Source: a virus | Lineage: Duplodnaviria > Heunggongvirae > Uroviricota > Caudoviricetes | Length of the DNA: 16,161 bases | Strand: one strand, 5' to 3' | IMG/VR virus record: IMGVR_UViG_2737471845_000010 | Coordinates: 1-16,161 of that record | Shown: one piece after another, positions 1,004 to 16,161 of the stretch | Position numbering within the stretch: position 1 is the first letter of the stretch | How the letters are laid out: each line of letters starts with the position of its first letter | The notes under the pieces: generated by a model | Told to the model about the DNA's origin: nothing | Seen by the model: the letters and a program-made list of their open reading frames with translations, nothing else | Database searches by the model: none | Program-made: the position numbers and the translations under genes

Positions 1004-1228
1004 GTCTTTTTCCCTATTCCGGTTAACGTGACATACCAATAACTCTTGTCTGAAAAGCCAGCAAGCTGAAAAACCGGTATTCGTAACCACCAGCGCGTTT
1101 AACGTACTGCACCACTTTTCGGGCACAAAAAACCCGCCTAACGGCGAGCTTAAGCTGTGTAGCGAAGTAACCACTCTTAACACACTAAGCGAAAAAATGC
1201 GGACCGCGTTAGTGATTTTTAGCAAGTT

Positions 1229-1259
1229 TTGCTTTATTTTTCCTACGTACAGTAAAAAT
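1229..1259 (+). promoter_or_regulatory. candidate sigma70-type promoter for the 336-aa gene (TTGCTT, ~18 bp spacer, TAAAAA)
   Basis: AT-rich divergent intergenic region 1004..1320; hexamers read by eye only. Confidence 0.25.
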
Positions 1260-1320
1260 AAGAAATCAATTCCAGCCAGGCTGGCTGAGTTAACACAGGT
1301 CTTAGAATGAGGGAACTTCT

Positions 1321-2331: not shown

Positions 2332-2350
2332 TCGGGCTGTCTGGTTTCAA
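2321..2350. terminator. hairpin AGCCCGA-gtaa-TCGGGCT overlapping the stop codon of the 336-aa gene, between convergent genes
   Basis: Perfect 7-bp inverted repeat at 2321..2338 followed by a moderately T-containing tract; lies between the 1321..2331 gene and the 3' end of Q. Confidence 0.4.
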
Positions 2351-2727
2351 GATTCCACTTCGGCATCCATTTCTAAACTTACATCCAACATACTCAGGCA
2401 ACCGTCGATAAACCCTTCAGCCATCTGTATCTCTATACGTATCAATTTCTCATCCTTCCAACGCGCCTTTGCAATCTTGCGCTTGGATATCCTGTATAAA
2501 TAATGTGCCACAAGAAGCGAATGCTCATAAGGCCTTTTTTGCTTTAAACAAGCAAGACAACCTTCAATAATTAATGCGTCACTATCTGAACAAGCCAGGC
2601 GTTTCTTACTGGTATAGGGCAGAAGTCCCTTAAACCCGGCAGCTATAGGTGAATAGTCCACACCCGAGCTATCACTAGCCGCCCATGCCCCCCAACGCTC
2701 AAGAACCATCTGAATATCACGCGCCAT
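2347..2727 (-). CDS. late-gene antiterminator Q (phage 21/82/DLP12 QuuD-like family)
   Basis: Translation MARDIQMVLERWGAWAA…IAAGFKGLL… matches my recollection of Q-family proteins of about 127 aa. ATG at 2727 preceded by GGTGG. Sits immediately downstream of rusA, as in the DLP12-type nin region. Confidence 0.8.
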   Translation of the reverse strand: MARDIQMVLERWGAWAASDSSGVDYSPIAAGFKGLLPYTSKKRLACSDSDALIIEGCLACLKQKRPYEHSLLVAHYLYRISKRKIAKARWKDEKLIRIEIQMAEGFIDGCLSMLDVSLEMDAEVES

Positions 2728-3088
2728 CGTTACCACCTGTAATTTCGTAAATCTTCACACCCAGCCGACCACCAGGTACGCGCTGACCGCGCACAATATT
2801 AATTTCATCAAACTGCTCGTCGTCGATAAGCAACCCCGCATGTGTCAGTGCATCCAGTGGTGCTTTCAGAATATTGTCCAGGTCACGACGGCGCTTATCC
2901 GGTGGCTCTGCAGTAATTTTTATTGCCAGCCTTCCGGACAGATTTAATTTCAGCCGCTGCTGGCGAACAATGAGCGCCACATCACGGCGATAACGCTCAC
3001 CGGCTTTTGATACAAAATATGTGCTGCCACGACGTCGCCAGTAGGTGTTTACCGTCGGCGGGTAAGGCAAAACAAACTCTATACGCAT
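2717..3088 (-). CDS. rusA: RusA-family Holliday junction resolvase
   Basis: Translation MRIEFVLPYPPTVNTYWRRRG…DKRRRDLDNILKAPLDALTHAGLLIDDEQ… carries the RusA hallmark segments (PPS/TVN…Y; RRRDLDN; DAL…AG…DD). RBS AGAGG 7 nt upstream of ATG 3088. Confidence 0.9.
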   Translation of the reverse strand: MRIEFVLPYPPTVNTYWRRRGSTYFVSKAGERYRRDVALIVRQQRLKLNLSGRLAIKITAEPPDKRRRDLDNILKAPLDALTHAGLLIDDEQFDEINIVRGQRVPGGRLGVKIYEITGGNDGA

Positions 3089-3100
3089 CAGTAACCTCTT

Positions 3101-4150
3101 TTACCCGAGCACGCCGGTTGCAAAGGCGTGATCAAGAAAACGAAAAATTAAATCAACCTGGGAACCATGCTTTTCTTCGAACGCCAGCGGATCCGCATGA
3201 AGTTCGTTGTGATGTTCCCGGCATAACGGTAGCGTGAAAATATCGTGGGATTTTGTTCCCATTCCGCCCTGACCATGACCAATCAGGTGATGGGGATCGT
3301 CGGCTGGCTTACCACAGCACGCACACGGCTGTGTCTTTACCCAGCGTGTATATTTCTCATTTATCCAACGGCGACGTTTAGGTCGCTTCATGAAAGATTC
3401 CGGAGACTCCGGATCTACGGCAATGCTGACCACCGTCTTTTCCTGTGGTGCGTTCTGTTGCTGGTGGGCGTGAGGTGGTAGCGCAATATTTTTTGTGCGC
3501 TGCTTCAGTATGCTGGTAGCTGTCTGCTCTCCCGGTACGATGTCGCTTTCGCGGTACAGGGAACGGATTTTTTCCACCGGTAATCCCAGCGAACGGCGTA
3601 ATACTGCTTCCGGTAGCGCGTCCGCCACCTGATTGCAGACCGCCCACCAGGATAATTCAGCCAGCGATAACTCCCGCTCCTGCGTGCCATTCATTGCGTG
3701 ACGGATGACGTCAATCATCCAGGCTGTCAGATTTTGATGAGCAAGTTGCTCTAGCGATTCCGAGGTCTGGTCGCGCAGTTGATTGTCACAGTGCCAGCAC
3801 AACACCATCGCGCCGGTACCGTAACGATGTATGACGATTTCACTGTGATGATAGTCACCATGAGGCCACTGGCAGGATTTGACATGACGCAGGAGCCAGT
3901 CAGATAGTGCACCAGCGCCGCCAGCAGCACGAATCACCCGCTCATCGCTGAAAAATGGCAGTAATGATTTATCTTCCGCCAGCGGCTGGCGAACGGCAGG
4001 AACAGCTCCGGACGGCAGACCGCGCATGTTTTTCGGTTCCGGCTCCACCAGCACTCGAGGGCTATGAAATACCTGCATGGATTCACGGCCAGGTTTAAGG
4101 ACCACCAGCCCAAGTTCCGGTACATGAACAGGTCGAAGCAATACCCGCAC
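3101..4150 (-). CDS. nin-region protein with C-terminal HNH-like zinc-binding motif (DUF968-like)
   Basis: 349-codon ORF; GTG start at 4150 preceded by GGAGG and coupled to the upstream gene's stop. C-terminus contains CACCGKPADDPHHLIGHGQGGMGTKSHD…PLCREHHNELH, a Cys/His-rich HNH-type pattern. Confidence 0.75.
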   Translation of the reverse strand: MRVLLRPVHVPELGLVVLKPGRESMQVFHSPRVLVEPEPKNMRGLPSGAVPAVRQPLAEDKSLLPFFSDERVIRAAGGAGALSDWLLRHVKSCQWPHGDYHHSEIVIHRYGTGAMVLCWHCDNQLRDQTSESLEQLAHQNLTAWMIDVIRHAMNGTQERELSLAELSWWAVCNQVADALPEAVLRRSLGLPVEKIRSLYRESDIVPGEQTATSILKQRTKNIALPPHAHQQQNAPQEKTVVSIAVDPESPESFMKRPKRRRWINEKYTRWVKTQPCACCGKPADDPHHLIGHGQGGMGTKSHDIFTLPLCREHHNELHADPLAFEEKHGSQVDLIFRFLDHAFATGVLG

Positions 4151-4151
4151 G

Positions 4152-4424
4152 TTACCTCCAGATGCGTTGCTGGAATGTGCGGGACGGACGCGGTGGGCGT
4201 TCAGAGTAAGGCAGTCTGACTGAGATTATCCAGTGTCGGAAGTCGAGGCTGAGGTCTTTCTGAAACTCGTAACCACGTCTGCGGTAGTTCTGAATTAGCC
4301 ACTCTGCCTGCTCTTCAGTGCATGGATCATGCTGGAACCAGTCGGTTTTAAATGCGCGCGAACGCCGCCCGTATCTGCTGGCAGGGGCGGTATCAGAATT
4401 GTGTAATTTGGTGTGGTGCGCCAT
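4152..4424 (-). CDS. hypothetical nin-region protein (start uncertain; may extend to TTG at 4478)
   Basis: ORF ends one base before the start of the HNH-like gene, suggesting translational coupling. First ATG is at 4424 (MAHHTKLHN…); the tracked ORF starts at TTG 4478. Neither start has a strong RBS. Confidence 0.45.
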   Translation of the reverse strand: MAHHTKLHNSDTAPASRYGRRSRAFKTDWFQHDPCTEEQAEWLIQNYRRRGYEFQKDLSLDFRHWIISVRLPYSERPPRPSRTFQQRIWR

Positions 4425-4605
4425 CTGTTTTCTCTGCTGGCGCAGCAGGTGCCAGTTGTTCAGGCTGGCGTGCGGCAATATTGTCTCTGATTTCTGTTGT
4501 CGTCAACCGCTTCTGTGCTTCCTCTCTTGATGAGTGAAGCGATTAACTTTACTATTTACTTAACAGGTTTTTCCTGTACCACGATTCCCTATACAGGAGG
4601 CCAGC

Positions 4606-4896
4606 ATGAGTGACGACAAAAAAATTGAGTTCAGCACCAGCGATGTGCTGAATGCTTTGTTGCATCGCCAGCAGAACATGCAACACCTGGCAACACAAGA
4701 AAACGTTGATAACCTCCGTCGTGAGATGGATACACGCCTGAACGTTATAGATAAGCGCCTCGACAAAATGGAGCAAGAAACCGAAAGACGGTTCAACAAG
4801 CTGGAAACCAAGTTTGATCGACTCCAGTGGTTTATTGTTGCTGCAGCTCTGGCTCTCATCTTCAAGGATTACATCTTCAGAATTATTGGTGCTTAG
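4606..4896 (+). CDS. small coiled-coil protein with C-terminal membrane anchor (96 aa), opposite in orientation to the surrounding operon
   Basis: Strong RBS AGGAGG 6 nt upstream of ATG. Charged heptad-like N-terminal region followed by the hydrophobic C-terminal stretch WFIVAAALALIF. Immediately followed by a terminator. Confidence 0.7.
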   Translation: MSDDKKIEFSTSDVLNALLHRQQNMQHLATQENVDNLRREMDTRLNVIDKRLDKMEQETERRFNKLETKFDRLQWFIVAAALALIFKDYIFRIIGA

Positions 4897-4901
4897 TAAA
4901 T

Positions 4902-4929
4902 CCGGCCCCGTTTTCGGGGCTGTCTTTTC
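4902..4929 (+). terminator. rho-independent terminator downstream of the 4606..4896 gene
   Basis: GC stem (G)GCCCCG-tttt-CGGGGC(C) followed by a T-rich tract (tgtcttttc). Confidence 0.6.
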
Positions 4930-5089
4930 ACATCTGCATCAGACTTTCCACCAACTTTTTATTGCCAGCTCCTGAAATCTGATCTACCTTATGCGCGTCA
5001 GAACGGCGCAATGCGCTCGCCTGTGATACGTTTACTTGTCATTGGTGGCAACAGATAACGGCAATTGTTGTTTCTGTTTGTTTCCTTCA

Positions 5090-5124
5090 AAAACCCCGGA
5101 CCGTCAATCCGGGGTTTTTGTTTG
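5090..5124. terminator. bidirectional rho-independent terminator (tR-like) ending the minus-strand early block
   Basis: AAAAACCCCGGA-ccgtcaa-TCCGGGGTTTTTG: perfect 7-bp GC-rich stem flanked by an A-run on one side and a T-run on the other, so it reads as an intrinsic terminator on both strands. Confidence 0.65.
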
Positions 5125-5204
5125 TTATCCCCAGCGGCAAATCGAATACACCATCAGCGCCACCGCCATCGCAATTCCTGCCGTTGTGAATGCTTCAGGC
5201 CAGG

Positions 5205-5567
5205 TCATCGTAAAATATCCTCCACGCTTATCAGTCCGTTTCGCTCCAGGTAGTCCATCACCTTATCCGGCAGTTTGCAGTCCGGCTTCGCTTTCCTCAG
5301 TTGCCAGGTTAACTGCTTTACCTGCATGGTTAACTCGTCGACCAGACGCTGATACCCCACTGGTTTGTATTCATAAAATTTACCAACTGGCGCTGCTGCC
5401 AGCGATTGCAGTGCAATTTCCAGAACAGCAATATCCATCTTATATGCGCGAATGAGGTCATGGTCGATTGTACCTGGTATGCACAGTCTCTGTGATTCAA
5501 TAGTCTCCTCTGCGTGGGCTATTAACTGCTCTTTGGTAAACCGTTCTTCTTTGGTCAAAGTCGCCAT
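5205..5567 (-). CDS. hypothetical early protein (120 aa)
   Basis: ATG at 5567 overlaps the stop of the upstream small gene; GGAAGAG upstream. No recognised motif. Confidence 0.65.
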
Positions 5568-5568
5568 T

Positions 5569-5742
5569 TTACTCTTCCACTTCGTCTTTTATTTCGTAAA
5601 TTGAGTAATTGCAGTGATTAAAGAAAACATCAATTGCCTCGTTTTCTATTTCCTCAGGAGTCGCGTCATCATCCACTTCAAATACATCTTCACGCACGCC
5701 ACCAACAATCCTCGTTTCGATAACTATTTTGAATTTTCGCAT
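5569..5742 (-). CDS. small acidic hypothetical protein (57 aa), below the ORF-track size cutoff
   Basis: Hand translation [65 protein letters not shown] upstream of ATG 5742; fills the gap between neighbouring genes. Confidence 0.5.
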
Positions 5743-5832
5743 TGTCTTACCACCATTTCTGGCAGTCTCCTGATGTTCTGAGGGTGCAGAAATCCCTCCG
5801 GTTAAGGATTTTATTTTCGATAATAATATTGG

Positions 5833-6189
5833 TTATTCTGGTCTGGTTTTTGTCGCCCTGCGTATCCGCGCTTTCACATTGCGCTCAATCTGAATTAGCT
5901 TTTCTATATTTTTACGTCTTTCCCGTTCCTCCTGACGCAATTGTTTTACATCATCTGCCAGTCTGGTTTCTCTTTTCGCCACAGAGAGCATCCAGTCAAA
6001 TGGCTCCACAACTGCACCGCAGATTTTACAACGGACATGACGCTCTTTTTCATCAACCCTGACAGAGGCGTGATGGCAATATGGTTTCTCCGATGGCTCA
6101 TAAAGAAAATTAACCTGATTACGTGGGTCATCCTCTTTTACCGGAAATAAAACAATATTACTTAACTCATCTTCTGGTTTTATTTCCAC
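5833..6189 (-). CDS. hypothetical protein with zinc-ribbon-like motif (CHH…C-x2-C)
   Basis: GTG start at 6189 preceded by AAAGGAGA; the longer tracked ORF (to 6264) would overlap the upstream gene. Contains PYCHHASVRVDEKERHVRCKICGAV. Confidence 0.6.
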   Translation of the reverse strand: MEIKPEDELSNIVLFPVKEDDPRNQVNFLYEPSEKPYCHHASVRVDEKERHVRCKICGAVVEPFDWMLSVAKRETRLADDVKQLRQEERERRKNIEKLIQIERNVKARIRRATKTRPE

Positions 6190-6190
6190 G

Positions 6191-6520
6191 TCACTCTCCT
6201 TTGATGCGAATACCTGCAACACGCAGTGCATGCTCCAAATCAGCCAGATAAAGCCAGCGCCCATGCTCTTTGGGCATCATGACATATTGCTCATCGGCAT
6301 TTATCGGATGACCCCTTCGAAGGTCATAGCAAGTCGGTAAATGCACTGCCCTTGCTTCCAGCTCTGCAATGCGTTTATCTCTGGCTTCCAGTTCGTCCAG
6401 TAACGCCAGCACAACCTGCGGTGTGACTTTCATGCGAAACGCCAGCAGTTTCTGAGGTGTGGACACTGTTTTTATTGCCTCTGCCACATCACGCAACGCC
6501 TGGTTGTTAATCTGATTCAC
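6191..6520 (-). CDS. hypothetical early protein with coiled-coil segment (109 aa)
   Basis: GTG start at 6520 with GAGGTG RBS; start overlaps the stop of the upstream gene (GTGA). LLDELEARDKRIAELEA heptad-like segment. Confidence 0.65.
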   Translation of the reverse strand: MNQINNQALRDVAEAIKTVSTPQKLLAFRMKVTPQVVLALLDELEARDKRIAELEARAVHLPTCYDLRRGHPINADEQYVMMPKEHGRWLYLADLEHALRVAGIRIKGE

Positions 6521-6831
6521 TGCGTCACCTCACGATTCCTCAACCAGATACAAACCGGTCCATCCTCGGTGTCATGAATGGAGCCAATAAACCAGCCCTC
6601 ACCCTCTGGTCGTTCAGGTTCCCATGCGGAAATATCGGGACCATCTGCATCCGGGTTAAAATCATCTTCATCCATACTGCGAATAGTCCACTGAAGATTA
6701 TTTGCCTTCATCCAGGCGTTAAATTCTTCCGTCGAAATATACTCCCGGCCATCACAAAATTTTTCATATTCAGGATGCGTCCAGCAGCCATATTCATCAC
6801 GTTCTACCGGCAGTTCTTTGATTTCAATCAT
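6517..6831 (-). CDS. hypothetical acidic early protein (104 aa)
   Basis: Internal ATG at 6831 preceded by GGAG at suitable spacing; the first ATG of the tracked ORF (6858) has no RBS. Confidence 0.6.
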   Translation of the reverse strand: MIEIKELPVERDEYGCWTHPEYEKFCDGREYISTEEFNAWMKANNLQWTIRSMDEDDFNPDADGPDISAWEPERPEGEGWFIGSIHDTEDGPVCIWLRNREVTQ

Positions 6832-6844
6832 AACATTAACTCCA

Positions 6845-7021
6845 TTAAGATAATGCAAAACAAATTAACCACACCACGACAACCGATGCTATTAACACCC
6901 TGATTGCAAACAGCGGGCTGATATGTCGAAAAGGATTTTCCCAGATAATAAAAGCCGCTGCCAGAAATGCACTGATAAGTAAAACAATAACAAACAGCTC
7001 AATTTTGATTATCCAGAACAT
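6845..7021 (-). CDS. small hydrophobic membrane protein (58 aa)
   Basis: Two predicted hydrophobic helices (IIKIELFVIVLLISAFLAAAFII and LFAIRVLIASVVVVWLICFAL); start overlaps the upstream stop. Confidence 0.45.
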   Translation of the reverse strand: MFWIIKIELFVIVLLISAFLAAAFIIWENPFRHISPLFAIRVLIASVVVVWLICFALS

Positions 7022-7023
7022 AT

Positions 7024-7320
7024 TCACTGCATCGCCTTCTGTAAAATAACCGCATGCCCCAGCTTCTCCGCCAGCGCCAGTTCTGCCTTAGCACCCGCCG
7101 ACCGCTGCCAGCCATTCAGCATGTAAATCGCATCCACGCAACGTATCATCGCCATGCAGATATCCATGTACTGCGACTGAGTCAGTCCGTCCGGAAGTAC
7201 TGCCGGGTTTAAGACGGTATGCCCTTCCCGTTTCAGTTCCTCTTCTGCCTTGTGGAACGCCTCACGGTTGAAATTTTTATACCCGGTCATCGGACCGGCG
7301 ATATAAACCCTCACCCTCAC
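7024..7320 (-). CDS. DUF4406-like protein (nucleoside 2-deoxyribosyltransferase-like fold)
   Basis: GTG start with strong AGGAGGTG RBS, overlapping the upstream stop. N-terminal RVYIAGPMTG…FN…AF motif typical of this family. Confidence 0.7.
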   Translation of the reverse strand: MRVRVYIAGPMTGYKNFNREAFHKAEEELKREGHTVLNPAVLPDGLTQSQYMDICMAMIRCVDAIYMLNGWQRSAGAKAELALAEKLGHAVILQKAMQ

Positions 7321-7709
7321 TCAATCACCTCCTGAAAATTACCCCGATAGAACGCCAGTACACGTTGCATTGATTCGCTGTTACGGCATTCCCGGCAAAT
7401 TATGTTCATGTCTCTGTCGTAGCGACGGATTTCACCATCAGGTAACTTCCGGACCAGTGCCGGGTCAGCTTTCTTCGGAGTTTTACACCACGCCTGATAC
7501 GCCTGTTCTGATACAAAAACACCGTGTTTACCGGATATGTACAAATCACCACAAGCAACCACATCCACAAGACAACGTCTGACCGTATGCCAGCCCGCCC
7601 CCGTTGCCCTCTCCAGTTGCGACATCGTCATGCGTTTGTTCCTGTGTATCAGCCCGATAATTCGCGCCTTCAGTTCTTCCCGCTGTTCGGGTGTAAAAAC
7701 GCTTGCCAT
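7317..7709 (-). CDS. hypothetical protein with predicted HTH segment (130 aa)
   Basis: AGGAGG RBS upstream of ATG 7709; segment MTMSQLERATGAGWHTVRRCL resembles a helix-turn-helix. Confidence 0.7.
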   Translation of the reverse strand: MASVFTPEQREELKARIIGLIHRNKRMTMSQLERATGAGWHTVRRCLVDVVACGDLYISGKHGVFVSEQAYQAWCKTPKKADPALVRKLPDGEIRRYDRDMNIICRECRNSESMQRVLAFYRGNFQEVIE

Positions 7710-7723
7710 GAGTCCTCCTGAAA

Positions 7724-8470
7724 TTACTTCACAACCCTTAAATGGCTGACATTTGAACGCCAGCTCTCCCAGTTAAAATTCACCCAGCGACCACCGTTCA
7801 TGGTCATGCGGTCCATCACGCGCTCGCCAAGCAGCGTATTCATTGCCGTATGGTTCAGGTTCGTCAGCATCCCGACGCTGTGCATCGAGGCTGTTCTGCG
7901 ATCGACTATCTGGTTCAGTGTGACCTGTTCGTTACGCGTATCCCGCTGCATACCAATTTCATCCAGGACAAGCAGGTCAACTTCACACAACCCCTGCAAA
8001 AATTTTTCGCCCGAGTTTTTGTTGTCGTAGTTGCCGTGTAACGCCAGCATCACATCCGCCACCGTCACCACAATCACGCTGCGACCTTTCGCCAGAAGAT
8101 GGTTGCCAATGGCTGCTGCCAGATGATTCTTTCCGGTACCCGGCTTACCGCTGAACACGAAATTTGTGCATCCGGTCATCATTTCTTCCGCGATGGATTT
8201 TGCCTGGCTCAGCGCGTGGCGTTGGCCATCGTTCTTCACCTGGTAATTCGCAAACGAACACTTCTGGTGCAACAGTTGGATACCGGAACGCTTCATAATT
8301 TTCTCCACCCGGATCTGGCGATTCTGGCGGTTAATTTCCTCACTACGCTTTCGCCCTTCTGCAAGCTGCCACTCTCGCCACTCGTCCACTGTCCGGTACG
8401 GCGCGGTTACATGCTGCGGGGCCAGCTTACGGATACGCTCAAGAACACCACCTGCCGCAATATTTTTCAT
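7724..8470 (-). CDS. DnaC/IstB-like AAA+ replication protein (helicase loader; Rac YdaV-like)
   Basis: Walker A motif GKPGTGKNHLAAAIG and Walker B-like LLVLDEIG; positioned immediately downstream of the replication initiator gene. Confidence 0.9.
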   Translation of the reverse strand: MKNIAAGGVLERIRKLAPQHVTAPYRTVDEWREWQLAEGRKRSEEINRQNRQIRVEKIMKRSGIQLLHQKCSFANYQVKNDGQRHALSQAKSIAEEMMTGCTNFVFSGKPGTGKNHLAAAIGNHLLAKGRSVIVVTVADVMLALHGNYDNKNSGEKFLQGLCEVDLLVLDEIGMQRDTRNEQVTLNQIVDRRTASMHSVGMLTNLNHTAMNTLLGERVMDRMTMNGGRWVNFNWESWRSNVSHLRVVK

Positions 8471-8476
8471 AACCCG

Positions 8477-9424
8477 TTACCCCCTGAATCCCGGCGGAAT
8501 TTCGGTATCCGGTTCAGAAATGTGATTCACACAACGCTGTACAGGCGAACGCCCCAGGCGGATGACCAGTTCGTCCCATTTTTCACGAAGCTTTGACGGG
8601 CTCATGACGTTTCTTACCCAGAATGGATCCCGTTGTACCCGACTGAACATTTCGCAAATTTGCCTGTGAGTTCTGCCATCCAGCACCCGCATTGTGCGCA
8701 CGTCATTGGCCCATGCTGTCCAGTTGGGTTCTTTCGGTCGCGTAATCTCGCCATCATCGCTGGCAGCCTGTTCGTAAAGACTCACGATTCGCCCCCAGAT
8801 CCACTGCGCACACGTCAAATCTTCCTGGCTGCCCCACTGGCGTTTTTTCGCACTGAACACAACCGCGTCAGGATGTCGGGTTAAAAAATCCTGTTCAGCC
8901 GTCTCCTCGTCCGGTTGCGAAGCTTCCGGACGAAAAGATCTTTTATCTGACGGATCAGGTTTTAATACTGACGGATCGGGGCCAACCATCGCCCCCCTAT
9001 CCGGCTGTTTTTTATCAATGGTTGATCCATCAAAATTTGAGGGGTCAACCGTTGAGGGGGCAATATTTGACGGGTCATTTTTTGCCTGGCTAATTTTTCT
9101 TTTCGGTTTATATGCCTCACGCGCCGCCGCTGCTGCTGCTTCGAGTTTTTCCACATTAAGACGGTAGATATTGCTTTCATTACGCCCACCGACCTTACGT
9201 TCCTCCTTCGTCAGCCAGCCGTTCTTTTCCAGTTCCGCTATCGCCGCTTTAACCGTTGATTCACTCTTTGCCCCAATCTGACGACGAATGGTCTCCACTG
9301 CAGGCCATGACACACCTTCGTCATTGCTGTAATCTGCAAGGCGAGCCATTACTGCCACCCTGGATAAGATCATGCCGGTGAAGGCACACCCTTCCCAGAC
9401 AAGACCATGAAGCTTGCTGCTCAT
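8477..9424 (-). CDS. phage replication initiation protein (lambda O-like functional analogue) with internal iteron origin
   Basis: GGAG RBS upstream of ATG 9424. N-terminal HTH-like segment; central repetitive DPSN/DPSV/DGST protein segment encoded by the iterons; followed by the DnaC-like gene. Confidence 0.85.
   Translation of the reverse strand: MSSKLHGLVWEGCAFTGMILSRVAVMARLADYSNDEGVSWPAVETIRRQIGAKSESTVKAAIAELEKNGWLTKEERKVGGRNESNIYRLNVEKLEAAAAAAREAYKPKRKISQAKNDPSNIAPSTVDPSNFDGSTIDKKQPDRGAMVGPDPSVLKPDPSDKRSFRPEASQPDEETAEQDFLTRHPDAVVFSAKKRQWGSQEDLTCAQWIWGRIVSLYEQAASDDGEITRPKEPNWTAWANDVRTMRVLDGRTHRQICEMFSRVQRDPFWVRNVMSPSKLREKWDELVIRLGRSPVQRCVNHISEPDTEIPPGFRG
8946..9115. repeat. candidate origin of replication: about five iterons (consensus TGA(C/G)GG(A/G)TC) plus adjacent AT-rich tract, inside the initiator gene
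   Basis: Copies at approximately 8948..8956, 8969..8977, 9038..9046, 9052..9060 and 9068..9076 (TGACGGATC, TGACGGATC, TGAGGGGTC, TGAGGGGGC, TGACGGGTC), followed by the AT-rich stretch 9077..9115. Architecture parallels lambda ori within gene O. Confidence 0.6.
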
Positions 9425-9447
9425 AAAAAACTCCGAACACCGTGCTT

Positions 9448-9873
9448 TTAGTGCATCACCACAGCATTTCCTGCCGGGCCACCACGATTCATCTGATTGA
9501 AACCGGCGATTGCCACTGCGACAAAATCATCAGCGTCTCTCACCAGTCGTTCCCGCGTCTCCACCAACTCCCGAAAATAGACTGAACTGTGGCTGCGCAT
9601 CCGGGCCACCAGCAGAGGTGGCATTGCTTTTTCGATAGCCGGTAACAACGCCTGAATTTTTTTAACCGCATCAGGAGTGTCTTTCTCTACCCAGCGGAAA
9701 ATTTTCTGGGTATTGCGAGCCAGGGCTTCCGGATGGCTATCGTCATACAGTTCAGGAAACGTCATACCCAACTCAAAATAAGCCTGGGTTATTCCAGCTG
9801 CTGGAACTTTTTCACCGTCCGGATGCGCCCAGACATTCATCGCCATGCGGATGTGTTCATGCTTGATTTTCAT
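9448..9873 (-). CDS. YdaT-like (CII-position) regulatory protein
   Basis: Begins MKIKHEHI, as I recall for the Rac YdaT family. ATG overlaps the stop of the Cro-like gene (ATGA). Position corresponds to cII in lambdoid layouts. Confidence 0.7.
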   Translation of the reverse strand: MKIKHEHIRMAMNVWAHPDGEKVPAAGITQAYFELGMTFPELYDDSHPEALARNTQKIFRWVEKDTPDAVKKIQALLPAIEKAMPPLLVARMRSHSSVYFRELVETRERLVRDADDFVAVAIAGFNQMNRGGPAGNAVVMH

Positions 9874-10085
9874 GAATCATTCTTTCCTTCGTTCGAGGTG
9901 CTATCCTGCTTCTTGTAAAGTTCTGGGTTGTATTTCAATTCACCGTTAGTAATTTCATCCAGCTCCATTGCTCGAAGTTTGGGAATAACTGCTTTCCACC
10001 GCACAACAGCCACATGTGAAATTCCAAGAGCCTCAGCTACTAGTCGCTTTTTTTTGAAATAGCGCAGAACATCATCTTTGAACAT
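9870..10085 (-). CDS. Cro-like repressor (DicC/YdaS-like small HTH protein)
   Basis: AGGAGAG RBS upstream of ATG 10085. 71 aa with HTH (RLVAEALGISHVAVVRWKA). Divergent from the CI-like repressor gene across an operator-bearing intergenic region. Confidence 0.8.
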   Translation of the reverse strand: MFKDDVLRYFKKKRLVAEALGISHVAVVRWKAVIPKLRAMELDEITNGELKYNPELYKKQDSTSNEGKNDS

Positions 10086-10114
10086 AAAACTCTCCTGTTA
10101 TTTCGAGCAGGAGG

Positions 10115-10176
10115 GTAACAATAGTTACATAGCAATGTCAACCATAGCAACATCACTTGGTAGTAACATTGGTTAC
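10115..10176. promoter_or_regulatory. OR-like operator region: two GTAAC-N4-GTTAC palindromes between the divergent cro-like and repressor genes
   Basis: GTAACaataGTTAC at 10115..10128 and GTAACattgGTTAC at 10163..10176, the latter directly abutting the repressor ATG. A TTGACA hexamer is present on the minus strand in this interval. Confidence 0.6.
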
Positions 10177-10851
10177 ATGAAAAACACTATCAGCGAACGT
10201 ATTCGGAATCGTCGAAAAGACGTTGGATTAACCCAACAGCAGGTTGCGAAAGCAATCGGCATATCTCGTGTATCCGTAACAAAATGGGAAAATGGCTCTT
10301 CAAAACCTGACGGTGAGAATTTACATCTACTGTCAAAATTGCTTTCCAAATCTCCTGAATGGATTCTTTATGGAAAGGACGGTCACGATAAAACCGATGA
10401 TCTGCGTCTGAATCAGTACCTTTACATTAGTGACAACATCGCCCGGTTGCCCGTTTTAACGTGGGAACAGGCTGGTTATTGGGATATGAGTTGCCCAGTA
10501 ACCGAGATTCCTGGTATTAAGAATTGGGTTGATGTCATGACAAAAACCGCTGAAAACTCTTTTTTATTGCATGTTGAGGGAGATGCGATGACAAACTCTA
10601 ACGGCCTCCCAACCATCCCCGACGGATCTACCGTGCTGATCACACCATGCTCAAGTAACATTAGAGAACTGGCGGGGAAAATAATCTTAATCCAATTGGA
10701 AGGAACGCCAAACGTAACACTAAAAAAAGTTGCGATTGACGGACCAAACATCTATCTGTTGTCACTGAATCCGCTTTACAAACCCATCGAACTGAATGGC
10801 GGTTACACCATTAAAGGTAAAGTTTCACAAATACATCAATACTTAGATTGA
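10177..10851 (+). CDS. CI-like prophage repressor (N-terminal XRE-type HTH plus C-terminal S24 LexA-like domain)
   Basis: HTH segment LTQQQVAKAIGISRVSVTKWENG. C-terminal domain aligns by eye with lambda CI (…EGDAMT…; …VTLKKV…). Start chosen at ATG 10177; the tracked ORF begins at TTG 10078 and would overlap the operators and the cro RBS. Confidence 0.85.
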   Translation: MKNTISERIRNRRKDVGLTQQQVAKAIGISRVSVTKWENGSSKPDGENLHLLSKLLSKSPEWILYGKDGHDKTDDLRLNQYLYISDNIARLPVLTWEQAGYWDMSCPVTEIPGIKNWVDVMTKTAENSFLLHVEGDAMTNSNGLPTIPDGSTVLITPCSSNIRELAGKIILIQLEGTPNVTLKKVAIDGPNIYLLSLNPLYKPIELNGGYTIKGKVSQIHQYLD

Positions 10852-10855
10852 GTCA

Positions 10856-10883
10856 GAACCCGCATTCATTGCGGGTTTTTTAT
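10856..10883 (+). terminator. rho-independent terminator after the repressor gene
   Basis: AACCCGCA-ttcatt-GCGGGTT stem-loop followed by TTTTTT. Confidence 0.7.
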
Positions 10884-10912
10884 GCCCTCAAACGTACCTT
10901 TTGCAACATCGT

Positions 10913-10939
10913 ATTGACTCATGTGGTAACTCTTGTTAC
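10913..10939 (+). promoter_or_regulatory. OL/PL-like element: TTGACT hexamer followed by the third operator palindrome GGTAACtcttGTTACC
   Basis: Same GTAAC-N4-GTTAC half-sites as the two OR sites (10925..10938), located at the head of the plus-strand early-left operon. The -10 element is not clear. Confidence 0.5.
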
Positions 10940-11259
10940 CTTAACAACATACCAACCCACTCCGCCCCACAGAATGCAGGGCAATACTTCGAGTTACCAG
11001 GCAGTGGTCAGGGGGTAAGTAGCCAGCCCGAGGCGTAAGAACATGACGGCAGGGTTCAACTTTAACTATGCAGCAGGTTTTTGTTCCGCTACCCCGGCGT
11101 TAAGGGGAAACAGAGGATTTCTCAGTGGGCGAAGTCAAACATCAGAATGGAAGGCATCCTGGGCTCTGCAAAGAAGCAGCAATGGCGCTTTATATTGACA
11201 TCAGCGCCATTGCCGGACAGCTAAGAATTATCAGGGCGGTAACTAAGCGGTATGCGCCT

Positions 11260-11460
11260 TTACTTCAGAAAGTCTCTTGTGAGTGCACCGAAGATATTGT
11301 CAACGATTTCGTCATCGAACTGCGAAGACTCATCTTCAGTTACAAGGTGACCACAATTTTTGCAGATGGCTCCCGCGAAACTGTCAGAGCCCTGCGGCTT
11401 AAAGGATGTGTCAAAGACTTCGCCACCACATTCTGGGCAAGAAAACTTGATTGTATTCAT
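11260..11460 (-). CDS. small zinc-ribbon protein (66 aa), antisense to the early-left operon
   Basis: Two CxxC pairs (CPECGG … CKNCGH) with an acidic C-terminus; GAGAGGAAA RBS about 6 nt upstream of ATG. The overlapping plus-strand ORF 11125..11481 is the alternative reading and contains several rare AGA/AGG codons. Confidence 0.45.
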   Translation of the reverse strand: MNTIKFSCPECGGEVFDTSFKPQGSDSFAGAICKNCGHLVTEDESSQFDDEIVDNIFGALTRDFLK

Positions 11461-11552
11461 AACCAATTTCCTCTCGAGTAACAGACCCCTCAGAGGATAC
11501 CACCTCGCCTGACGTGGTTAAAAGCAGGCAACGCTAACCACAAGGAGCCGAC

Positions 11553-11750
11553 ATGCAGAAACGAGAACCCGTCATCATCGCGCCAGACTATACCGATGAT
11601 GAACTTTATGAGTGGATGCGCCAGAAAATTAATGCAGCGCAGGATTTGAAATGGGCCAATGAAGCTAGGGCTAAGCAGGCTGAAAATCTGTCCGCTCTGG
11701 AGCAGGATATCACCAGGCTGGAAAAAGCAGCGGCATTAAGCATTGCCTGA
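11553..11750 (+). CDS. small hypothetical early-left protein (65 aa)
   Basis: RBS AAGGAG 6 nt upstream of ATG; coiled-coil-like C-terminus. Confidence 0.65.
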   Translation: MQKREPVIIAPDYTDDELYEWMRQKINAAQDLKWANEARAKQAENLSALEQDITRLEKAAALSIA

Positions 11751-11793
11751 ATGATTACATACCCACGTTAATAGCTAACCAACGAGGCTAATA

Positions 11794-12201
11794 ATGGAAT
11801 TTAAAGATTTACCAAAAGAAATCCAGACAATTGCTGCAACGACTCTCGGTGATAGTCTGGTGAAAATTGACCCGGCATACACCAAAAAAGAAACCATCGA
11901 TAATATGGTTCGTAATGTGCGCAATGCTTTTTCTGGGCTATATGGTTCTGATAATCAAAAGCAGGAAAGCGATGTTAATAAACGGGTAATTTCTGTTTGC
12001 GTGAATGGCCATGTTCTTTCATCAATCAAAACAGAAACGGCGACAGTCTTCGATTGCCTTTGCATTGTACAGAGCCTTGTTGATGCCCTGTTTCGTTCAG
12101 TGAATTTAGAAAATGACGCAAATCTGCGAGGGCGCACAATAGCACATCCATATGCACATACTTTAGGCTCTGTGGATATCAAAGATCCCACAAATCTTTA
12201 A
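11794..12201 (+). CDS. hypothetical early-left protein (135 aa)
   Basis: RBS-like ACGAGG upstream of ATG; 3' end overlaps the convergent minus-strand gene by about 23 bp. Confidence 0.6.
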   Translation: MEFKDLPKEIQTIAATTLGDSLVKIDPAYTKKETIDNMVRNVRNAFSGLYGSDNQKQESDVNKRVISVCVNGHVLSSIKTETATVFDCLCIVQSLVDALFRSVNLENDANLRGRTIAHPYAHTLGSVDIKDPTNL

Positions 12202-12412
12202 TGAAATAGTTAACGCGAATTGTACTTGCTCTTTCAGTTGCTTTCAGAATACGCGTTGAAACTGCTGGCGGTAATTTGGTATTCCATTTATTAAAATCAT
12301 GCCCGGGAAAGTACTCTTCGAAAATACTTTTAACTGCAGACTCGCCTATTGAAATGCTGCTTACCATGCGATTTTGATAAAGGCATTTAGCAATAAGAGT
12401 TGATTTTAACAT
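12179..12412 (-). CDS. hypothetical 77-aa protein encoded opposite to the early-left operon
   Basis: Strong RBS AGGAGGG 4 nt upstream of ATG 12412; convergent 3' overlap with the 11794..12201 gene. Confidence 0.55.
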   Translation of the reverse strand: MLKSTLIAKCLYQNRMVSSISIGESAVKSIFEEYFPGHDFNKWNTKLPPAVSTRILKATERASTIRVNYFIKDLWDL

Positions 12413-12747
12413 TCACCCTCCTGAAGGTTGGTAATTAAGGAGTTCTCCACGGGTGGGGTGGAGTGCGTGCGCCGGACACGGGTGAGCATCCGGCACTGAC
12501 AGTTTACTGAAAGGATATTTCTCTGAAAAGTCAGAGCATAACGCGAAAGCGCACGGCGAGGTTGCTGGTTCATAGATAGCCTGTCGTTAAATTTTCGTCG
12601 ACCGTGCGCTTCCGGTTGTGGCACCCCGCGAAATGGCGCGGCGGTAAGTATGGCGGGGTTATCCTTACCCCCACTGGTGGCACCGGGTTGTCAGGTTGAC
12701 CATACGCCTGAGTGACAACCCCGCCACAACATCTCCATGTTGAGGCT

Positions 12748-12802
12748 TGTGTGAGACCTTTGGCGGCATCAGTTTAATTGCTGGCTGATGTCCGCCCTTT
12801 TT
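12748..12802 (+). ncRNA. dicF: DicF-like small RNA (cell-division inhibitor sRNA family) ending in an intrinsic terminator
   Basis: Sequence …CCTTTGGCGGCATCAGTTTAATTGCTGGCTGATGTCCGCCCTTTTT closely resembles my recollection of E. coli DicF (GGCGG…AUCAGUUU…CCGCCCUUUUU). Long imperfect hairpin GGCGGCATCAG / CTGATGTCCGCC plus T-run. Located directly upstream of a dicB homologue, as in Qin. 5' boundary is approximate. Confidence 0.55.
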
Positions 12803-12985
12803 AAAGTGAATTTTGCGATGCGGTGAATGCGGCTAAGCGCACGCGGAACAGTTAAAAAGGCCAGTTGACTTCCGTATTGGTTCTTATGGGTGGGTTCTCT
12901 GTATCCGGCGTTAATTGTTAACTGGTTAACGTCACCTGGAGGCACCAGGCACCGTATCACAAAATTCATTGTTGAGGACGCGATA

Positions 12986-13174
12986 ATGGAAACGTTATTA
13001 CCAAACGTTAATACGTCTGAAGGTTGTTTTGAAATCGGTGTCAGAATCAGTAACCCTGTATTTACTGAAGATGCCATTAATAAGAGAAAACACGAACGGG
13101 AGCTATTAAATCAAATATGCATTGTTTCAATGCTGGCCCGTTTACGCCTGATGCAAAAAGGACGCTGCCAATGA
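12986..13174 (+). CDS. dicB: DicB-like cell division inhibitor (62 aa)
   Basis: Translation METLLPNVNTSEGCFEIGVRISNPVFTEDAINKRKHERELLNQICIVSMLARLRLMQKGRCQ is near-identical to the E. coli DicB sequence as I recall it. GAGGA RBS; the tracked ORF's upstream extension is not needed. Confidence 0.8.
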   Translation: METLLPNVNTSEGCFEIGVRISNPVFTEDAINKRKHERELLNQICIVSMLARLRLMQKGRCQ

Positions 13175-13374
13175 ATACAGCATTTGCACTCGTTCTGACA
13201 GTTTTTCTTAATACAGGCGAACCAGTCGATCTTGTTATTGGTATACATGACTCAATGAAAGAATGCATGGCTGCCGCAGCGGAACAGAAAATTCCCGGCA
13301 ACTGTTATCCGGTTGATAAAGTTATTCGCATGGACAATAACGAAATCCCGGCAGGACTTAAAACAGCACCGTAA
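13171..13374 (+). CDS. ydfD: YdfD-like small membrane/lysis protein (67 aa)
   Basis: ATG overlaps the dicB stop (ATGA). N-terminal hydrophobic helix AFALVLTVFL, then …CMAAAAEQKIPGNCYPVDKVI…, resembling Qin YdfD from memory. Same gene order as Qin dicB-ydfD. Confidence 0.6.
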   Translation: MNTAFALVLTVFLNTGEPVDLVIGIHDSMKECMAAAAEQKIPGNCYPVDKVIRMDNNEIPAGLKTAP

Positions 13375-13454
13375 TTAATATCCGGTTTCATTTTTATATG
13401 CCAGCAATGGCAGGGATTTGTTCACCATTAAATCTGTAATGAGGTTAAAACAAA

Positions 13455-15917
13455 ATGAGTAAAGTTTTTATTTGCGCCGCCATTCCGGACGAACAGGCAA
13501 TAAAGGAAGAAGGTGCAGTTGCTGTAGCCACTGCCATTGAAGCCGGTGACGAACGCCGCGCCCGTGCCAAATTTACCTGGCAATTCCTGGAGCAATATCC
13601 GGCTGCTCAGGACTGCGCTTATAAATTTCTTGTCTGCGAGGATAAACCCGGCATGCCCCGCCCTGCTATCGACTCTTGGGATACCGAATATATGCAGGAA
13701 AACCGCTGGGATGAGGAATCCGCTTCCTTTATTCCGGTCGAACCAGAATCCGATCCGATGAACGTCAATTTTGACAAGCTGTCCCTTGAAGTACAGAACG
13801 CGGTCCTGGTTAAGTTCGGTACATGTGAAAACATCACCGTTGATATGGCGATTGACGCGCAGGAATTACTGCAGGAAGACGTTGCTACCTTTGACGGGCA
13901 TATCGTTGAAGCACTGATGAAAACGCCTGAAATTAACGCTATGTATCCGGAACGCAAACTGTTCGCTATCGGATGGGTTAAACACAAATGTAATCCGGGT
14001 GCCAAATGGCCCGAAATTCAGGCTGAATTACGTAACTGGAAAAAACGGCAGGACGCAGAGCGCAAAGAGACTGGAAAATACACGTCTGTTGTTGATCTCG
14101 CCAGCGCCAGAGTCAATCAACAGAACACTGAAAACTCAGCAGGAAAAATCAACCCAGTCACTGCCGCCATTCGTCGCGAATACAAGCAGACATGGAAAAC
14201 GCTGGATGAAGAACTGGCCTACGCTCTCTGGCCTGGCGATATTAATGCCGGAAACATTGACGGCAGCATCCATCGCTGGGCAAAAAATGAAGTTATCGAC
14301 AAAGATCGCGAAGACTGGAAGCGCATCTCCGCATCAATGCGCAAACAGCCTGATGCGCTTCGCTACAGCCGCCAGACTATTTTTGGCCTTGTCCGTGAAC
14401 GACCGATCGACATTCACAAAGATCCCGTGGCACTGAACAAATACATCACTGAATACCTGACTACAAAGGGCGTGTTTGAAGATGACGAAGGAACAAATCA
14501 GGGCGCAGCTAATACTCTCTCGTCGCCAGTACCAGAAACTGATGCAGTGGAAACGGCAATTCCGGACAACGAAAAAACCGAATGCAAAGTGGAAGTCGAA
14601 CCATCTGTAGAGCGTGAGGGGCCGTTCTACTTCCTCTTCACCGACAAGGATGGCGAAAAATACGGTCGCGCAAACAAACTTTCTGGTCTGGATAAGGCGC
14701 TGGCTGCCGGGGCTACTGAAATCACGAAAGAAGAATATTTCGCCCGCAAAAACAGTACATACTCAGGTTCACAACAAAATACTGGTGCATCTGACACGAC
14801 CGCACAACCAGAGCCGGTAAAAGTTACCGCTGACGAAGTAAACAAAATTATGCAGGCAGCCAATATCAGCCAGCCTGACGCCGATAAGTTGCTTGCTGCC
14901 TCTCGCGGAGAATTTGTTGCAGGGATTAGCGACCCGAATGATCCGAAATGGGTTAAGGGGATCCAGACCCGCGATTCTGTAAACCAGAACCAGCAAGAAA
15001 CGGAACAAAACAGCCAAAATGCGTTACAAAACGAGCCAGAAACGAAACAACCTGAGCCAGTAGCGCAACAGGAACCGAAAAAAGTCTGCACCGCCTGCGG
15101 TCAGAGCGGTGGCGGCAACTGCCCTGATTGTGGCGCGGTGATGGGCGACGCAACATACCAGGAAACATTCGATGAAGAGAATCAGGTTGAAGTTCAGGAA
15201 AATGATCCGGAGGAAATGGAAGGCGCTGAACATCCACACAAGGAGAATGCTGGCAGCGCTCAGGACCACGCCAGCGATAATGAAACTGGCGGGACGGCAG
15301 ATCCCTTAATTGCGGTGAACGGTCATCACGTTATCACATCCACCAGCAGAGTGTGGTACCACCTGATGATCGACCTTGAAACAATGGGAACCAACACCAA
15401 TGCGCCCATCGTGGTTATTGGTGCGGTTTTCTTCGACCCACAAACAGGGGAAATCGGGCCAGTATTTTATATCGTTATCAGTCTGACTGACGCAATGAAT
15501 ACAGGGGCTGTTCCTGACGGTGGAACCATCAAATGGTGGCTGAAGCAGTCCAGTGAAGCCAGAGCTGCCATTTTAACAGGCCAGGTAAAACTGAAGGATT
15601 CCCTTTCGCGGTTTCGGGAGTTCATCAACGAATACTCAGATGAAAAATTCGTTCAGGTATGGGGTAATGGTGCAACTTTCGATAACGCAATTTTGCGCAC
15701 CTCATACGAACGTCTGGACATCCCCTGCCCGTGGCGCTACCACAACGATCGCGATGTACGCACAATCGTTGAGCTGGGAAAAACAATCGACTTTGATGCC
15801 AGAACCGTTATTCCATTCGAAGGCGTGCGCCACAATGCACTGGATGACGCCCGTCACCAGGCAAAATACGTTTCAGCAATCTGGCAAAAACTGATCCCGA
15901 ATCCGGTTGATTTTTAA
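13455..15917 (+). CDS. large early-left protein (820 aa) with C-terminal DEDDh 3'-5' exonuclease domain; resembles prophage proteins annotated as exodeoxyribonuclease VIII
   Basis: C-terminal motifs MIDLETMGT (Exo I, D-x-E), WGNGATFDNAIL (Exo II), HNALDDARHQAKY (Exo III, H-x-D). Central acidic/Q-rich low-complexity linker containing a CxxC…CxxC zinc-ribbon (CTACGQSGGGNCPDCG). Occupies the position of the recombination/exonuclease gene in the early-left operon. Confidence 0.85.
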   Translation: MSKVFICAAIPDEQAIKEEGAVAVATAIEAGDERRARAKFTWQFLEQYPAAQDCAYKFLVCEDKPGMPRPAIDSWDTEYMQENRWDEESASFIPVEPESDPMNVNFDKLSLEVQNAVLVKFGTCENITVDMAIDAQELLQEDVATFDGHIVEALMKTPEINAMYPERKLFAIGWVKHKCNPGAKWPEIQAELRNWKKRQDAERKETGKYTSVVDLASARVNQQNTENSAGKINPVTAAIRREYKQTWKTLDEELAYALWPGDINAGNIDGSIHRWAKNEVIDKDREDWKRISASMRKQPDALRYSRQTIFGLVRERPIDIHKDPVALNKYITEYLTTKGVFEDDEGTNQGAANTLSSPVPETDAVETAIPDNEKTECKVEVEPSVEREGPFYFLFTDKDGEKYGRANKLSGLDKALAAGATEITKEEYFARKNSTYSGSQQNTGASDTTAQPEPVKVTADEVNKIMQAANISQPDADKLLAASRGEFVAGISDPNDPKWVKGIQTRDSVNQNQQETEQNSQNALQNEPETKQPEPVAQQEPKKVCTACGQSGGGNCPDCGAVMGDATYQETFDEENQVEVQENDPEEMEGAEHPHKENAGSAQDHASDNETGGTADPLIAVNGHHVITSTSRVWYHLMIDLETMGTNTNAPIVVIGAVFFDPQTGEIGPVFYIVISLTDAMNTGAVPDGGTIKWWLKQSSEARAAILTGQVKLKDSLSRFREFINEYSDEKFVQVWGNGATFDNAILRTSYERLDIPCPWRYHNDRDVRTIVELGKTIDFDARTVIPFEGVRHNALDDARHQAKYVSAIWQKLIPNPVDF

Positions 15918-15983
15918 TGTTCACCCCTGATCGCCGTCCCCGAATTATATTGGCGGCGGTCATGCTGTAAGGCACGTGACCAC

Positions 15984-16161
15984 ATGTACGAATTAACTCT
16001 ATCGCCAGCAGAGATTCAAGAGATCACGAAATACGAGCGATACACAAAACAGCAACACCAGTTAAGGCTGCACGGTATCCCATTTGTAATCGGTCCTAAA
16101 AACGAACCAATAGTTCTTCGCAGGGATATTCCACACGGACTGACTACGATGCCAAAAGCAC
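15984..16161 (+). CDS. hypothetical protein, 5' portion only (continues beyond window end)
   Basis: ATG at 15984 opens a frame with no stop to the window end (MYELTLSPAEIQEITKYERYTKQQHQ…); weak RBS. Confidence 0.4.
   Translation, partial: MYELTLSPAEIQEITKYERYTKQQHQLRLHGIPFVIGPKNEPIVLRRDIPHGLTTMPKA

Follow-up and report, generated by a model that had tools for sequence, protein, structure and literature searches.

A convergent, overlapping gene pair in the early-left operon of dicBF-type prophages as a candidate lysogen defence and self-immunity module

The early-left operon of a Qin/dicBF-type lambdoid prophage carries two small convergent genes that overlap tail to tail, and the pair is a widespread and conserved two-gene module of temperate phages. 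We describe it from IMG/VR virus record IMGVR_UViG_2737471845_000010 (Caudoviricetes), positions 1 to 16,161, and call this whole stretch of 16,161 nucleotides (nt) the window. The plus-strand gene encodes a protein of 135 amino acids (aa) and the minus-strand gene a protein of 77 aa. Both open reading frames (ORFs) are real genes. By analogy with opposite-strand pairs studied in other phages, we tentatively propose, stopping short of calling it probable, that the 77-aa gene encodes a small defence protein expressed in the lysogen, and that the 135-aa protein carries its self-immunity partner, made early in the lytic cycle. The pair consists of the following features.

11794..12201, plus strand: 135-aa gene (WP_000394520.1, phrog_1363), an ATG-start ORF annotated by the Prokaryotic Genome Annotation Pipeline (PGAP), with a PHROG match and homologues
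11794..11970, plus strand: N-terminal domain of about 59 aa (MEFKDLPKEIQ...), joined to varied C-termini in other early-left proteins
11971..12198, plus strand: "partner domain" of about 75 aa (residues ~60-135), related to 75-80-aa proteins that stand alone as the first gene products of pL operons in other prophages of Enterobacterales
12179..12412, minus strand: 77-aa gene (WP_000920491.1, phrog_10348), an ATG-start ORF with a PHROG match, a family alignment and an AlphaFold2 (AF2) model
12179..12201, both strands: tail-to-tail overlap of 23 nt, the last seven codons of both genes, from the ORF list and the sequence
12416..12422, minus strand: Shine-Dalgarno (SD) sequence AGGAGGG of the 77-aa gene, 3 nt before its ATG, read from the sequence
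11786..12423, no strand assigned: approximate limits of the two-gene cassette, from blastn breakpoints against the "empty-site" phages Tritos and vB_EcoS-813R8

The original prediction, made from the sequence alone, had described a 77-aa minus-strand gene with an AGGAGGG ribosome-binding site (RBS), overlapping the 3' end of the 135-aa gene by about 23 base pairs (bp). The sequence confirms both statements: the overlap is exactly 23 nt, and on the minus strand AGGAGGG is followed by TGA and then by the start codon (12412-12410). In a near-identical E. coli chromosome PGAP calls both genes hypothetical proteins, and both are present in the sequenced coliphage Evi. Residues 1-130 of the 135-aa protein match phrog_1363 (E 3.8e-47) and residues 1-77 of the 77-aa protein match phrog_10348 (E 1.1e-47), two PHROG families annotated without a function. 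Close comparisons, pooled and with the overlap left out, give a ratio of nonsynonymous to synonymous polymorphism (pN/pS) of 0.27 in the 77-aa gene and of 0.36 in the partner domain. Neither protein had been recognised at first sight, and the homology checks agree with this. Pfam (E up to 1) and NCBIfam gave no usable family match for either protein, no relative of either was detected in the Protein Data Bank (PDB) or among solved structures, and a literature search by the two WP accessions found no mention of them.

The 77-aa protein belongs to a family of nearly constant length. Homologues of exactly 77 aa, with 55-72% identity, occur in Klebsiella, Raoultella, Dickeya, Xenorhabdus, Morganella, Yersinia, Serratia and Salmonella, and an exhaustive HMMER search of a library of 1.84 billion proteins returned 163 clusters, nearly all of 74-80 aa. 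The E. coli protein has a mass of 8.9 kDa and a pI of 9.5, and a Serratia homologue is acidic by a residue count on its sequence. The AF2 model is of soluble type and consists of five helices, with a mean predicted local distance difference test (pLDDT) score of 96.7; no transmembrane-like segment is found in the sequence (maximum 19-residue hydropathy 0.59). Single-protein scans of viral contigs with distant relatives of the 77-aa protein gave no match.

Conservation of the pair was followed by scanning the six-frame ORFs of 165 fetched loci with hidden Markov models (HMMs) of both families. The convergent partner and 77-aa genes overlap by 23 nt in 146 hits, by 26 nt in 5 and by 51 nt in 1, and the 37 distinct convergent protein pairs come from Escherichia, Serratia, Klebsiella/Raoultella, Dickeya, Proteus, Citrobacter and unassigned viral contigs. 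Among prophages of Dickeya, Serratia and Klebsiella/Raoultella, every 77-aa homologue converges on a gene of 77-79 aa, with the 23-nt overlap, and these pairs sit directly downstream of the CI repressor. Both the window and loci L004-L009 have the 77-aa gene pointing against the early-left operon. Pairing persists at 35-45% protein identity and across different operon contexts, and a much more distant pair in L165, a read-archive assembly, still keeps the 23-nt overlap (partner HMM E 1.8e-11). Both the minus-strand ORF and the pair are thus kept in related and distant prophages. Because the overlap is dual-coding, the C-termini of both proteins co-vary. The overlap also contains a palindrome, which arises from K-D-L codons. 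We considered it as a bidirectional terminator and rejected it, as it is AU-rich, has no U-run and is not kept in other genera.

On the plus strand, the partner domain is the part that accompanies the 77-aa family. It is 36-43% identical to the stand-alone partners of L004-L008, and its profile search returned 82 clusters, mostly of 75-80 aa. In Citrobacter (L012 4001-4420, which is P0147, and P0113) it forms a fusion with a ClpX-type C4 zinc finger (PF06689) at the N-terminus, and the 78-aa Citrobacter member of the 77-aa family, uncalled in the assembly annotation, overlaps the partner gene by 51 nt. The N-terminal domain of the 135-aa protein recurs with other C-termini. Residues 1-66 match phrog_9419, phrog_2151, phrog_6937 and phrog_33007, and the domain is also present in 208-212-aa proteins (P0077/P0082) and in 147-aa proteins of Shiga toxin (Stx)-converting phages, encoded in the early-left operon after DUF2303 and 37-39% identical over residues 1-125. 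AF2 confidence is low over this domain. Two readings were tried and discarded. The position of the partner after pL suggested an N-like antiterminator, which should be a basic or arginine-rich protein, and this one is neither; the motif EANxSG[KR]T was considered as a P-loop, for which it has the wrong spacing, in a domain that is too small.

The pair occupies a polymorphic slot between ydfC and the small RNA (sRNA) gene dicF. Positions 11553-11810 and 12424-13200 of the window are contiguous in L002 and L003 by blastn, and relative to Tritos and 813R8 the pair is a discrete insertion of about 640 bp. Two other cassettes alternate with it in E. coli. In one, a 201-aa protein, composed of the N-domain, the partner domain and a 66-aa extension, converges on an unrelated 63-aa gene and overlaps it by 23 nt as well; the region of the AGGAGGG RBS of this 63-aa cargo gene in L010/L011 is the same as that of the 77-aa gene, and the recombination breakpoint in the 201-aa variants lies exactly at the start of the overlap. 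In the other, a 208-aa protein with the N-domain and a different C-terminus abuts an unrelated 69-aa minus-strand gene. The plus-strand proteins of all three cassettes carry the MEFKDLPKEIQ N-domain and the minus-strand proteins are mutually unrelated. Cassettes were located at 4001-4775 of L010/L011, 2013-2849 of L169 and 11794-12412 of the window; the 135+77, 201+63 and 208+69 aa combinations are found in 656, 8 and 662 of 5426 complete genomes, respectively. The original prediction had taken absence of the pair from related prophages with otherwise identical flanking genes as a point that would count against it. The pair is conserved, and yet such prophages exist, either lacking it or holding another cassette; it is therefore an accessory module and not part of the operon core.

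One locus has a disrupted N-domain gene. In L171 (3001-4932) an element of the insertion sequence family IS3, with transposase genes at 3224-4437 on the minus strand, splits a plus-strand N-domain gene, while an intact minus-strand gene of 77 residues (4699-4932) lies where the 77-aa gene sits and is, by this position, a candidate member of the family. This might be a putative counter-defence gene inactivated in a resident prophage.

The genes around the pair place it in a repressor-controlled operon:

10078-10851, plus strand: CI/DicA-like repressor of the helix-turn-helix (HTH)-S24 type, from the window gene order
11260-11460, minus strand: Zn-ribbon gene of the ECs_2282 family (NCBIfam NF047912, E 1.1e-15)
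11553-11750, plus strand: ydfC, from the window gene order
12748..12797, plus strand: DicF sRNA (Rfam RF00039, full-length, 45.4 bits, E 4.4e-8)

The genes run in the complete order Cro-like gene (minus strand), repressor, Zn-ribbon gene, ydfC, the pair, DicF, dicB, a DUF1482 (ydfD-like) gene and exonuclease VIII, with an integrase after exonuclease VIII in the matched E. coli genome. The repressor, ydfC, DicF, dicB and the DUF1482 gene all lie on one strand, as in a dicBF-type early-left operon. The location next to the immunity region given by the original prediction is thus right in outline. In K-12 the dicBF operon is under DicA repression (PMC10448788), and from this context we take the 135-aa gene as a member of the repressor-controlled early-left operon and the 77-aa gene as opposing it. 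A scan with Rfam gathering thresholds gave no match in the window, because the DicF score falls 2.6 bits below the gathering score of 48. A terminator-like hairpin lies within DicF, at 12765-12792.

Promoters and operators outside E. coli suggest when each gene would be expressed. In L008 a TTGACC-18-TATTAT promoter is followed by the partner as its first gene, this pL promoter region contains several operators, one of which (ACAGATAAAACTGT) is identical to one in the cI-cro region, and a terminator follows cI. Being first behind a pL with shared operators, the partner is expected to be an immediate-early, CI-repressed gene, and its sequence context predicts expression only after derepression. 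The 77-aa genes outside E. coli are preceded by a conserved element of about 75 nt, in which the positions of TGnTATnnT are fixed or almost fixed; the ATG follows 31-34 nt downstream. Judged by sequence, it has the signature of an extended -10 promoter with a short leader, and it is common to phages with differing repressors and operators. The layout in L165 is different: the 77-aa homologue is the third gene of an HTH-repressor operon, and the partner starts in an OL-like region where TACCTnnnGGTAT repeats as it does in the OR-like region. Either layout, own promoter or repressor operon, would supply the lysogen with the 77-aa protein and would bring in the partner only upon derepression. In the same locus, TACCTnnnGGTAT-type operators are repeated in both intergenic regions (2019-2104 and 3440-3570), and the gene that precedes the 77-aa homologue in the repressor operon encodes 110 aa, with a translation that looks lipoprotein-like and has an HNH-like motif.

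Two candidate promoter sequences were found in the window itself:

11494..11530, minus strand: copy of the extended -10 element, TGCCTGCTTTTAACCACGTCAGGCGAGGTGGTATCCT (nhmmer E 4.7e-9), directly upstream of the ECs_2282 Zn-ribbon gene
12501..12529, minus strand: weak candidate sigma-70 promoter TTTTCA-17-TAAACT (8/12) for the minus-strand cargo gene, read by eye and below the scan threshold

The second of these sequences is kept upstream of all three E. coli cassette types. Besides the 77-aa genes, the extended -10 element precedes ECs_2282 Zn-ribbon genes and a 147-aa gene (L012 5089-5532), and it resembles a portable promoter that serves genes pointing against the early-left operon. A weak copy was also seen before a 170-aa gene in L094. 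In about 30 E. coli viral-contig loci (e.g. L017 4883-4990) the Zn-ribbon gene has a GAA-to-TAA nonsense change at codon 14, and the promoter element is intact.

The element contains inverted repeats, for example at L008 4929-5001, L093 3926-4002 and L012 4681-4611. One repeat covaries, GCCTG/CAGGC alternating with CCAC/GTGG. The 3' arm of a second repeat covers the SD sequence and occurs in four compensatory versions, namely CTTGG/CCAAG, CCTTC/GAAGG, CCTCT..GAG/CTC..AGAGG and CCTTATTGG/CCAAGCAAGG. RNAfold z-scores of the element are weak on both strands, and wobbles and mismatches point both ways. The repeats may be an operator, a hairpin of the 5' untranslated region that sequesters the SD sequence, or an RNA of the antisense strand.

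Taken together, we hypothesize that the pair works as an accessory two-gene "non-contiguous operon" of temperate phages. In the lysogen, the 77-aa gene would be expressed from a promoter of its own or, in one lineage, within the repressor operon. Its product, a soluble protein of five helices, would act by binding another protein, and its most likely role would be interference with superinfecting phages. The partner, either the C-terminal ~75 aa of the 135-aa protein or a stand-alone protein of 75-80 aa, would be made only once the repressor is lifted, and would neutralise the 77-aa protein so that the prophage itself can go through its lytic cycle. Transcription of the early-left operon would pass through the 77-aa gene in antisense, lower its expression and aid the switch between the two states. 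In this model we infer the timing of expression, the defence activity and the binding between the two proteins.

The proposal draws on pairs described in other phages, which this one resembles in layout and would-be working, not in family. One of them is Tai/Ati, a tail assembly inhibition system of coliphage phi80 and Salmonella prophages (PMC11364771). In phi80, taiEcA lies on the opposite strand and interrupts the late operon that holds atiEcA, an arrangement called a "non-contiguous operon"; the lysogen produces Tai, whose expression falls when the operon is transcribed, and Ati binds the Tai protein cognate to it (He et al. 2024, PMC11364771). Here too an opposite-strand gene interrupts a lytic operon next to its presumed partner gene in a lambdoid E. 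coli prophage. However, the phi80 operon is Q-dependent and late instead of early-left, and TaiEcA has 26 kDa against 8.9 kDa here. When the proteins of 77 and 135 aa were compared with 50,697 phage records by tblastn, phi80 was neither among the 12 records of a complete listing nor among the 40 of 73 rows listed in the other.

In Listeria phage phi10403S, TerI, a protein of 65 aa, is encoded on the minus strand in the early lytic module and its gene overlaps an opposite-strand ORF; it is constitutively transcribed and targets the terminase, the self-immunity genes anti-TerI1/2 are in the early operon, and the conserved TERi promoter is followed by four alternative, unrelated cargo genes (Azulay et al. 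2025, bioRxiv 10.1101/2025.02.27.640495). The conserved promoter with swapped cargo parallels the extended -10 element and the three E. coli cassettes, in which a conserved promoter or slot likewise holds alternating unrelated cargo. The host of phi10403S is Gram-positive, and the proteins are likened by description only. Pseudomonas phage JBD26 has a minus-strand tab gene with its own promoter and an adjacent plus-strand atab in the lytic operon (Patel et al. 2024, PMC10884400). This is the same convergent arrangement of defence and counter-defence, although in the late operon of a Mu-like phage and with different proteins, and PMC10884400 describes no mutual overlap. No homology in sequence or fold was found to catalogued defence proteins, including Tai, Tab and TerI, and the PADLOC models gave no match. 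The present pair shares with these systems a small opposite-strand gene embedded in a repressor- or antiterminator-controlled lytic operon, and an adjacent partner gene that by its sequence context belongs to this operon.

Two further systems bear on the position of the pair. BstA/aba of Salmonella prophage BTP1 joins a defence gene of the prophage to a cognate determinant of self-immunity (Owen et al. 2021, PMC8585504). Likened here by description, it differs in that BstA is large and aba is a DNA element, not a protein. The bstA gene adjoins the cI repressor. Like the pair, SieB of lambda, P22 and Rac is an accessory function that maps to the early-left operon or its vicinity, near the immunity region. 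It is a membrane protein of larger size, and the lambda gene has the same orientation as pL. The 77-aa protein is, in contrast, small and of soluble type, and no Pfam match to the SieB family was found at E up to 1. The suggestion of the original prediction that such genes serve exclusion or host control gains from the fit with Tai/Ati, Tab/anti-Tab and TERi, while its comparison with sieB holds for position only. The collision-based regulation that it had also suggested would fit those experimentally studied pairs as well.

Several observations weigh against the defence and self-immunity reading. The absence of a clear promoter for the 77-aa gene is the main gap for the window itself: the element profile gave a single nhmmer match in the window, which is not upstream of this gene, and the promoter scan found no sigma-70-like site passing the threshold there. 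The PADLOC models had zero matches with both the 77-aa and the 135-aa protein. The AF2 model of the partner domain, a beta-hairpin plus helices, reaches only moderate confidence (pLDDT 68-84). Each half is also found without the other. The 201-aa variants have the partner domain without the 77-aa gene, and in Stx2a phages, including PA2 gp25 (L173 2501-2944), the N-domain protein has no convergent minus-strand gene. A solitary 79-aa homologue, 43% identical, is encoded at L016 3989-4228 in a Psychrosphaera (Alteromonadales) chromosome, in a non-prophage setting between chemoreceptor and glycoside hydrolase genes. A distant metagenomic member of the 77-aa family (L167 91-321), upstream of an HU-like gene, has no partner, and neither has one further distant member. 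Finally, overlapping genes are co-inherited anyway, so that a conserved pairing is by itself no proof that the two genes are functionally linked.

This last point leads to the alternative that the two genes are functionally unrelated accessory genes, which travel together only because the shared 23 nt prevents recombination from separating them without damage. The occurrence of the 77-aa family and of the partner domain each on its own, as well as the breakpoint of the 201-aa variants at the overlap start, would agree with it. We consider it unlikely, since pairing is kept down to 35-45% identity and in different operon contexts, where an accidental overlap would be expected to decay, and since the same reciprocal expression logic recurs, with one gene under repressor control and the other independent or in the repressor operon.

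An improbable alternative is that the pair controls the switch itself, either because the 77-aa gene and its promoter oppose pL/dicBp by convergent interference or antisense RNA, or because both proteins are regulators. The two promoters, separated by about 450 bp, point towards each other and no terminator lies between the genes, the partner is in an immediate-early position after pL, and the covarying inverted repeats upstream of the 77-aa gene are possible operators or SD-sequestering hairpins. However, the module is dispensable: sequenced phage genomes such as Tritos and 813R8 have an empty site, and other prophages hold unrelated cargo in the slot. The 77-aa family does not keep its net charge (pI 9.5 for the E. 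coli protein, acidic in Serratia), which argues against DNA binding, and distant members stand alone outside prophages.

We give similarly little credit to a toxin-antitoxin-like or host-control module, in which one protein would hit growth, division or proteolysis and the other counteract it, to the benefit of prophage maintenance or host physiology and not of defence against phages. Two tightly linked small proteins would be compatible with it, their operon neighbours DicF and DicB are host-control factors (PMC10448788), and the ClpX-type zinc finger on some partners hints at a link to proteolysis. The genes are, however, convergent and not co-transcribed as in type II systems, no toxin-antitoxin family in Pfam or NCBIfam matches either protein, and neither is a short hydrophobic toxin of type I. 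Lastly, a shadow ORF on the minus strand, for which only the missing promoter in the window would speak, is effectively refuted by the mere 23 nt of overlap, the strong RBS, the constant-length homologues across genera and beyond, the pLDDT of 96.7 and the pN/pS of 0.27.

The wider neighbourhood follows Qin of K-12 (ydfABC-dicF-dicB-ydfD), whose order of repressor, ydfC, DicF, dicB and DUF1482 gene is repeated in the window. K-12 Qin differs in having no gene between ydfC and dicF (gene order in PMC10448788), as in the empty-site Tritos and 813R8. The ydfC gene of the window stops early at a TGA (11748-11750), giving 65 aa. The matched E. coli genome reads AGA at this codon, and Tritos and 813R8, with Arg at this position, encode 72 aa, so that the nonsense change in the window drops the last 7 residues. 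A sub-threshold match resembling STnc100 (34.9 bits against 47) was seen at 12795-13018, before and into dicB.

Beyond the pair itself, a broader and more doubtful proposal is that the 77-aa protein founds an unrecognised family of all-helical prophage defence proteins of 8-9 kDa. Each would be encoded tail to tail with a self-immunity domain of about 75 aa, at a fixed 23-nt overlap, in Enterobacterales prophages, including those of enterohaemorrhagic E. coli (EHEC) O157, and in sequenced coliphages. The family would be one of several kinds of cargo of a portable promoter cassette of the extended -10 type, which sets lysogen-expressed genes against the early-left operon, and the multi-domain plus-strand proteins (N-domain, partner domain, extension) would be concatenated counter-defence modules.

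If the defence and self-immunity reading is true, about 12% of complete E. coli genomes would carry an undescribed miniature defence and self-immunity pair, as would many prophages of Klebsiella, Serratia, Proteus, Dickeya and Citrobacter. The proteins would be new to Pfam, PADLOC and PDB, in an architecture already known from other defence pairs, and the logic of the "non-contiguous operon" would hold not only for late operons (Tai, Tab) but also at the immediate-early pL position of lambdoid phages. The system is small enough to allow rapid genetics and structural studies, and the genomes of coliphage Evi, with the pair, and of the related Tritos, with an empty site, are on record as starting points. 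The conserved promoter element with swappable cargo, together with the polymorphic ydfC-dicF slot, could provide a route to mining small lysogen-expressed genes that defence catalogues have missed. Moreover, in strains that carry the pair, transcription of dicBF has to pass through a gene that opposes it, which bears on the biology of DicF and DicB.

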